Shown here one piece after another: positions 3,001-6,000 of a stretch of 8,460 nt of DNA. The DNA is from a virus (taxonomy: Duplodnaviria; Heunggongvirae; Uroviricota; Caudoviricetes), in the IMG/VR virus record IMGVR_UViG_2541047932_000017, positions 1 through 8,460 of that record; one strand, given 5' to 3'. Position 1 is the stretch's first letter. The number at the start of each line of letters is the position of its first letter. The position numbers are program-made.

Positions 3001-6000
3001 ACGGCACTTTTGCCATCACGGCAGTGCAGCATGTGCCGGAAAAAGAAGCCATCGTGGATAACGGGGCCAGCTTTGAGCCGCAGTCAGGCACCCTGAACAG
3101 CGTTATTCCACCGGCAGTGCAGCACCTGACGGTGGAGGTGAGCGCGGCTGACGGTCAGTATCTGGCACAGGCGAAATGGGACACGCCGAGGGTGGTGAAG
3201 GGCGTGCGCTTCAGTCTGCGCCTGACCAGTGGAAGCGGTGAGAACAGCCGCCTGCTGACCACCGCCATCACTGCCGATACGGAGCACCGTTTCAGTGGCC
3301 TGCCTCTCGGGGAATACACCCTGACGGTCAGGGCGATTAACAGCTATGGCCAGCAGGGCGAACCCGCCACCACCACCTTCCGGATTAACGCACCGGCAGC
3401 GCCTGCCGGTGTTGAACTGACGCCGGGGTATTTTCAGATAACGGCAGTCCCGAAACTGACATTTATGACCCGACGGTGCAGTTTGAGTTCTGGTTTTCGG
3501 AGGCAAAAATTGCAGACGCCGCACAGGTGGAAACCTCTGCCCGTTATCTGGGGACCGGCAGTCAGTGGAGTGTATCCGGCCCGCACATTAAGCCCGGGAA
3601 GGATTTCTGGTTTTACGTGCGCAGCGTCAACCTGGTGGGGAAATCTGCGTTTGTGGAAGTCAGCGGGCAGCCCAGCAATGATGGTGAAGGGTATCTGGAA
3701 TTTTTCCGGGAAAAAATAGGAAAACTGCATCTGGCTCAGGGGGTGTGGGAACTGATAGATAACAGCCAGCTTGCAGATGAGATGGCGGAGATGAAGACCA
3801 GCATCACGGAAACCCGCAATGAAATCACACAGACGGTCAGTAAAACACTGGAGAACCAGAGCGCCACCATTCAGCAGATACAGCGCGTGCAGAAGGACAC
3901 AAATGATGACCTGGCTGCGCTGTACATGCTGAAGGTTCAAAAAACGAAAGACGGCATTCCCTATGTGGCCGGGATTGGTGCAGGGATTGAGGATACTGAT
4001 GGCCAGCCACTGAGCAACATACTGCTGCTGGCTGACCGTATCGCGATGATAAATCCGGAGAGCGGCAACAGCACGCCGTTATTTGTGGCGCAGGGGAATC
4101 AGCTGTTCATGAACGATGTGTTCCTGAAGCGGCTGTTTGCGGTGAGTATCACGTCATCCGGCAACCCCCCGGCGTTTTCCCTGACGCCGGAAGGGAAGCT
4201 GACAGCCAGGAACGCGGATATCAGCGGAGCAATTACCGCGAATACCGGCACGCTCAATAATGTCACCATTAACGAGAACTGTGTCATCAGAGGGAAACTG
4301 TCTGCAAACCAGATTGAAGGCGACCTGGTGAAGACGGTGGGGAAAGCCTTTCCCCGGAATAACAGTTATGCCAGCGGGACGGTAACCGTCACAGTTTACG
4401 ATGACCAGGGCTTCGACCGACAGATTATCATTCCCCCGGTACTGTTTCGCGGGACGAAACACCAGAATTTCAACAGCCCGAATCAGCAGTCGTACTGGTA
4501 TTCCACCTGTAAGCTGCAGGTGCTGAAGAACGGGGTTGAGATTTTCCATGAACCGGCAACGGATGTCAGCCGGGTGTTCTCATCGGTGATAGATATGCCG
4601 GCAGGGCGGGGTCATGTCACCCTGACGTTTAATGTGTCGTCGGCCGGTGCGAACAACTGGACGCCGACAACGTACATCAGTGATTTACTGGTTGTGGTCA
4701 TGAAAAAATCCACGGCAGGGATCAGTATCAGCTGACGGTTTATTAACCCGGACGGGCACCTCAGGAGGTGCCTTTTTTATTGACTGAAAACAAAGAGGTA
4801 ATCATGCGGCATTTATACGCAACGATATTATTGTTTACTACCCTGCTGGCAGGAATTGCCTTTCCTGCACAGGCTGAAAGCGGACACGGTGCATTTTCCG
4901 TGGGATATGCTCAGGTTCACCCGGGCGGCGTACCGGCATTGTCCGGTACCGGTGCGCGTGCAGGTGATTTAAAAGGGATTAATGTGAAATGCCGTTATGA
5001 GTTCACGGATCACCTGGGCGGCATTGTCGCGCTGAGTTATGCATCGGTGAAGAAAAGTGACACGATGAAGACGGGTGAAAATACCTTCCATTATGAAAGC
5101 CTGCGCGGTCGTTATGTCAGTCTGATGGCCGGCCCTGTCTGGCAGCTCAGTGAGCGGGTCAGTCTCTATGGCATGGCCGGGATGGCGTACACCCGCTGGT
5201 CTGACAGTGTTCAGGATTACCGGCGTGATGAAGTGAAACCGGGGTATGTGAAGGAGACCACCACCGCCAGTGATGGTCATACTGCGCGTCATCTGTCGCC
5301 GGCCTGGAATGCCGGGATTCAGTTCAGTCCCGTAGAGACGGTGGTTATTGACCTTGCTTATGAAGGTTCCGGCAGTGGCGACTGGCGCACTGACGGTTTC
5401 ATCGTGGGTGTCGGCTATAAATTCTGATTAGCCAGGTAACACAGTGTTATGACAGCCCGCCGGTTCAGGCGGGCTTTTTTGTGGGGTGAATATGGCAGTA
5501 AAGATTTCAGGTGTACTGAAAGACGGCACAGGAAAACCGGTAGAGAACTGCACCATTCAACTGAAAGCCAGACGTAACAGCGCCACGGTGGTGGTGAACA
5601 CGGTGGCCTCTGAAAACCCGGATGAAGCCGGTCGTTACAGCATGGAGGTGGAGTATGGTCAGTACAGCGTGATTCTGTTGGTGGAGGGATTTCCTCCGTC
5701 ACATGCCGGGAGCATCACCGTGTATGAAGATTCTCAACCGGGTACGCTGAATGATTTTCTCGGTGCCATGTCGGAGGATGACGTCCGGCCGGAGGCACTG
5801 CGTCGTTTTGAACTGATGGTGGAAGAAGCGGCGCGTCACGCTGAGGAGGCGAAGAAGAATGCCGGAGAGGCGGAGACGTCCGCGAGGAATGCCGGCATAT
5901 CAGCCAGTCAGGCAGAAGAGAGCGCGGCAAATGCTGACACTTCAGCAGGGGATGCATCGGAGTCAGCCCGGCAGGCGGCAGAAAGTGCAGCCGCTGCAAA

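Follow-up and report, generated by a model that had tools for sequence, protein, structure and literature searches.

The lambda-type J gene of an effector-carrying, lambdoid prophage that adjoins potB in Escherichia coli UMEA 3292-1 is interrupted by a frame change at position 3461, and ERB37205.1 and ERB37206.1, deposited as separate proteins, are pieces of a single J gene. We slightly favour a genuine and very recent deletion of one base, a C from an ACC codon, over a sequencing or assembly error at the same place. In either case a frameshift of a single base in a well-known gene is nothing out of the ordinary: its kind has been explained before, no new mechanism is involved, and it is of little importance beyond annotation.

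The window, that is, the whole stretch of DNA analysed (8,460 nucleotides), is identical to bases 1–8460 of scaffold KE702281.1 (22,195 bp), a 2013 draft scaffold of assembly GCA_000461135.1. UMEA 3292-1 is a human UTI isolate belonging to a phylogroup B1 clade (GenBank metadata quoted in PMC8940275); the literature on this strain yielded no report on its prophages. The window contains the right-hand end of the prophage (the remainder of gene I, sodC, J, lom, two tail-fibre genes and nleB), with the following features:

1–411 (+): tail assembly gene I, C-terminal 136 codons, at the scaffold start
599–1126 (−): sodC, Cu/Zn superoxide dismutase, a cargo gene between I and J, 175 aa, intact
1260–4735 (+): J, 3476 nt
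1260–3719 (+): 5′ frame of J as written, 819 codons, made up of 734 native and 85 out-of-frame residues
3459–3461 (+): site of the lesion, an ACA codon where intact relatives have ACC-A, one C being lost between 3460 and 3461
3461–4735 (+): 3′ part of J in the −1 frame, 424 codons plus TGA, with no internal stop and no more indels
4804–5427 (+): gene for an Ail/Lom-family outer-membrane protein, 207 aa, intact
5492–7076 (+): side tail-fibre genes, 437 aa and 89 aa, equal in length to those of intact relatives
7253–8233 (+): gene for an NleB-family type III effector, cargo, 326 aa, with a full-length match to SseK_NleB

Read from the ATG at 1260, frame 0 gives native J sequence as far as ...QITAVPKLT, which ends in ACA 3459–3461, and then continues out of frame to a TAG at 3717–3719. 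The J sequence picks up in the −1 frame at ATT 3461–3463 and proceeds to the natural stop, TGA 4733–4735; a −1 shift exactly after the ACA would yield native ...KLT followed by IYDP.... Translation and the match to lambda gpJ thus bear out the sequence-only reading, made before any database search, which had placed a split in J within 3440–3480. The 5′ frame was deposited as ERB37205.1 ("phage tail protein"), its 734 native residues reaching from the hub domains through FNIII-1/Ig_J to ~20 residues into FNIII-2. The 3′ part encodes what remains of FNIII-2, then the helical shaft, the straight fibre (Phage_Tail_Tip) and the receptor-binding domain at the C-terminus, and the deposited call for it covers just 3791–4735 (ERB37206.1, 314 aa).

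The position of the indel was established by alignment to two intact J genes, those of O55:H7 CB9615 and Res13-Lact-PEA14-20 (hereafter Res13), both of 1158 codons. J is 3476 nt long in the window versus 3477 nt in these relatives, which read CTG ACC ATT TAT where the window reads CTG AC- ATT TAT, and the missing C is the single indel in the whole gene. Against the closest intact J, that of CB9615 (98.0% identical), the alignment shows CTGACCATTTATGAC versus CTGA-CATTTATGAC in the window. The deletion-bearing reading of the site is accordingly CTGACATTT, and the C-containing reading is CTGACCATT / CTGACCATTT. As written, J lacks the uninterrupted ORF of ~1130–1160 codons found in gpJ; with the C re-inserted it becomes a 1158-codon ORF, colinear with the intact J genes and with lambda gpJ. 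The earlier expectation that one extra base would restore the frame was therefore correct, and the repair then proposed lay within 1–2 nt of the right position, although the base is the C of ACC and not a T or an A. A compensating second indel is ruled out by the colinearity of J with the intact genes after the addition of one base.

Both halves of J match lambda gpJ (PDB 8IYK; E = 0), and the lambda protein reads straight across the junction. The repaired protein aligns end to end with 8IYK and possesses all six gpJ Pfam domains above the gathering threshold and in gpJ order:

Residues 86–207: FNIII-A
Residues 330–498: Phage-tail_3
Residues 609–712: Ig_J
Residues 714–816: Ig_J_second
Residues 871–998: Phage_Tail_Tip
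Residues 1035–1158: Ig_GpJ_C

In the lambda structure the domains run HDs, FNIII-1, FNIII-2, AHS, CSF and RBD (PMC11101478), and Ig_J_second is the FNIII-2 of that paper. The shift at residue 734 consequently falls ~20 residues into this domain. Besides sharing its full length and domain order with lambda gpJ (PDB 8IYK, 8XCG–8XCK), the window's J occupies the same place in the tail module, after K and I and before lom and stf. It differs in that its ORF is broken after residue 734, in that its receptor-binding part is much nearer to "A8" gpJ than to the LamB-binding domain of lambda, and in that sodC is inserted between I and J. The same insertion is present in Res13 and in strain CD45, and is absent from CB9615 at that position.

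The truncated product keeps the hub domains and FNIII-1. Beyond these little of FNIII-2 survives, and the alpha-helical shaft, central straight fibre and receptor-binding domain at the C-terminus are all gone, and with them every part that reaches and binds the receptor. A virion built from this product alone would presumably neither bind its receptor, which is probably OmpC, nor trigger DNA ejection, and a prophage making only truncated J should not be infectious by itself. Rescue might come from other lambdoid prophages in the cell, either by supply of J in trans or by repair of the allele through recombination, and expression of sodC, lom, nleB and espK would be expected to be independent of J.

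The suggestion of OmpC comes from the C-terminus. Residues 857–1158 of the repaired protein score 456 bits against A8 gpJ versus 309 bits against lambda J, and the receptor-binding end (4256–4735, J residues ~1000–1158) is much nearer to A8 gpJ (PDB 9WCA) than to the lambda LamB-binding domain. A chimera with A8 was built and tested as an OmpC-recognising gpJ (PMC11338833). Since its C-terminus resembles A8 gpJ, whose chimera was made for OmpC, the intact allele probably recognised OmpC as well. The likeness to A8 gpJ 713 (PDB 9WCA/9WCB), the natural gpJ C-terminus of the OmpC-targeting lambda chimera (PMC11338833), is a C-terminal match and not an identity, and unlike its counterpart the window's receptor-binding part is, as written, out of frame with the hub.

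Block-wise comparison with three alleles shows J to be a mosaic of known alleles. Positions 1560–1710 of the window have 1 mismatch to the Res13/CD45 allele versus 17 to CB9615, positions 2460–3660 are nearly identical to the CB9615 allele, and 25 positions in J differ from all three. Private SNPs of the window's allele include 3335, 3743, 3751, 3760, 3775, 3801 and 3808. The exact repaired protein of 1158 aa has no entry in a collection of 15 billion proteins. Chimeric assembly was considered as a source of this pattern and set aside, as natural recombination in J gives an identical picture and the mosaic does not discriminate between the two.

The deletion is a singleton in the collections searched. 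Among 5,426 complete E. coli genomes a 100-nt query across the site failed to find it, the best matches being 99.0% identical, which is equivalent to one gap. The same query matched 1,548 E. coli records, 83 of them at ≥99% and none without a gap; the best matches span 101 bases for 100 bases of query, that is, they contain the extra base, and all 15 matches listed of the 83 near-identical relatives are in frame. An exact 39-mer across the site had no match in species-representative genomes and none in metagenome contigs. Exact look-up placed the 819-aa product in one contig only, and no protein with an identical junction turned up when the out-of-frame tail was the query, a weak absence, for long partial products hide in 90% identity clusters. 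Because no close sister genome of the repaired allele has been sampled, its singleton status says little either way.

The choice thus lies, as the sequence-only reading had it, between a pseudogene and an indel error: the 15 listed relatives are in frame and there is no gapless match among the 83. It was further argued that a related genome with the extra base and an intact ORF would establish an assembly error. The relatives do have the base and a 1158-codon ORF; what they show is only that the ancestral allele was intact, which is no proof of an error in KE702281.1.

Nor does the DNA beyond the shift show relaxed constraint. Downstream 19 codons differ from CB9615, of which 4 are non-synonymous, and upstream 45 differ, 14 of them non-synonymously; no further stop or indel, as would be expected only of an old pseudogene, was found in J downstream of the shift. 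Across 2460–3660 a single substitution, besides the deletion, separates the window from CB9615. This lack of downstream decay, together with the near-identity to an intact allele, implies that the deletion is either very recent or not real.

For a genuine loss of the C count the condition of the neighbouring genes and the alignment to CD45. In 13.7 kb of the scaffold the eight other nameable genes that are fully contained (sodC, lom, both tail-fibre genes, nleB, espK, potB and potA; pepT runs past the end of the stretch examined) are all full length, and the remaining indels relative to CD45 lie at or beyond gene ends, with none inside coding sequence. J frameshifts in this stretch are, moreover, recurrent: in four other E. 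coli assemblies J is shifted into that alternative frame too, each time at a different place within ~100 codons downstream, and in two of the four the contig is of chromosome size. Lambdoid prophages of O157 Sakai have documented frameshift defects in morphogenesis genes, along with complementation by co-resident prophages (PMC2669165). These frameshifts and the Sakai precedents also count in favour of a real deletion, such lesions being common. Against it are the lack of independent confirmation for a singleton and the absence of later decay, which is exactly what an error would look like.

The serious competitor, to which we give somewhat less than an even chance, is such an error, the strain itself having ACC ATT and an intact J of 1158 codons, and the C having been dropped where reads from paralogous J genes overlap. 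The deletion's singleton status in every collection searched, the absence of secondary decay and the 1.2 kb of flanking DNA almost identical to an intact allele all fit an error. The scaffold starts inside tail assembly gene I, with ~40 kb of upstream prophage DNA placed on other contigs; the assembler therefore broke within repeated prophage DNA and was already in difficulty, and the missing base lies in an allele-specific patch adjoining a stretch conserved between J alleles. E. coli genomes with any match to J have a median of three matching places, and consensus errors are more likely in a draft scaffold that begins in repeated prophage DNA with multiple copies of J. On the other hand, a CC dinucleotide is an atypical context for indel errors, none of the eight other genes in the 13.7 kb has a frameshift, and real J frameshifts occur in chromosome-sized contigs of other E. 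coli. Illumina data have a low rate of indel errors, and the UMEA assembly series was presumably made from such data, which also counts against an error.

If the deletion is real, this urinary-tract E. coli harbours a prophage, with nleB, espK and sodC aboard, that needs help to adsorb to any new host, and whose effector genes could spread only through helper prophages or recombination, a situation known from EHEC. If the missing C is an error, ERB37205.1 and ERB37206.1 are draft-assembly artefacts which ought to be merged into one J. The further proposal of a defective prophage that keeps only its cargo found no support within the scaffold: the lom, tail-fibre, sodC, nleB and espK lengths equal those of CD45, in whose prophage J is intact and the lambda-like structural module complete, and the window's J has no second lesion. 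Compatible virion proteins can come from other lambdoid prophages in the cell even where J is dead (PMC2669165). The defective prophages of EHEC O157 Sakai (Asadulghani et al. 2009, PMC2669165) are similar to the one described here in being lambdoid, in their virulence cargo and in having lesions in morphogenesis genes, which in Sakai are frameshifts, deletions or IS and can be complemented by co-resident prophages. They differ in that the window shows one lesion only, a putative one, in that "host specificity" in Sakai was mostly scored intact, and in that the present prophage, whose head, replication and integration regions lie off the scaffold, is known only from its right-hand end.

It is very improbable that the deletion is real and the cell nevertheless makes some functional J, whether through low-level −1 slippage (for example, on T_TTT_C at 3431) or through gene conversion from a paralogous J. 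An element of this sort would be transmissible at low frequency while looking defective.

Less credible still, and hardly to be entertained, is that the two-frame arrangement is functional and full-length J is produced by programmed −1 ribosomal frameshifting or transcriptional slippage. The direction needed is indeed −1, an exact shift after the ACA gives the native sequence, a P-site T_TTT_C is present at 3431, 28 nt upstream, and two X_XXY_YYZ heptamers occur 130–180 nt downstream (CCCGGGA at 3593 and GGGAAAT at 3638). The heptamer scan, however, found no such heptamer at the junction, nor any between the last stop in the −1 frame (3413–3415) and 3590. About 0.4 canonical heptamers are expected by chance per ~100 codons, so that two distant ones mean little, and intact relatives carry the same heptamers out of frame within a single-frame J. 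A slip at 3593 or 3638 would garble 44–59 residues of FNIII-2, and one on T_TTT_C, the only perfect re-pairing site upstream, would replace 9 residues. Four downstream RNA segments fold no better than shuffled sequence (z-scores +0.42 to +1.24). Homopolymers near the junction do not exceed 5, and the longest in 3380–3720 is an A6 at 3711, just before the frame-0 stop. The deletion recurs in none of the 1,548 records that contain this stretch, the best matches carry the extra base, and the relatives examined have an intact, single-frame J.

The lambda tail assembly chaperone G/GT is the familiar case of a programmed −1 frameshift, with a slippery heptamer and a two-frame arrangement that are both conserved across phages. 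J resembles it in being a tail gene of the same phage type with a −1 shift, and differs in that both conserved features are absent at the window's J. Programmed frameshifting is accordingly rejected on the scans for heptamers and homopolymers and on the RNA folds; the sequence-only reading had called it unlikely, given that it saw no canonical heptamer.

We give next to no credence to a naturally split J, in which a hub protein and a fibre or receptor-binding protein are made separately, the latter from GTG 3476 or ATG 3791, and then assembled: gene callers do predict a downstream ORF with the Phage_Tail_Tip and Ig_GpJ_C domains, but the break falls inside a beta-sandwich domain and not between domains, no Shine-Dalgarno-like sequence was seen on reading the sequence ahead of GTG 3476, the N-terminal piece bears 85 nonsense residues, the arrangement occurs in no relative, and in lambda it is the covalent continuity of gpJ that ties fibre to hub (PMC11101478).

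Downstream of J, the 437-aa tail-fibre protein contains collagen-like repeats and a Phage_fiber_C domain, and the 89-aa protein which follows it bears a second copy of that domain. A 77-codon ORF at 8227–8460 (+) is probably not a gene; it has no family match and overlaps a conserved 91-aa gene on the opposite strand (8313–8588). Past the window the scaffold continues with this hypothetical gene and espK, followed by chromosomal potB, potA and pepT. The 91-aa gene and the effector gene espK (453 aa) occupy 8313–10376, between nleB and potB. The espK–potB junction is 99.9% identical among the matches listed, and in 409 complete E. coli genomes a match covers 80% or more of the junction query. 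Some genomes with this junction, such as E2863, have only a fragment of nleB, with nleL and espN there instead.
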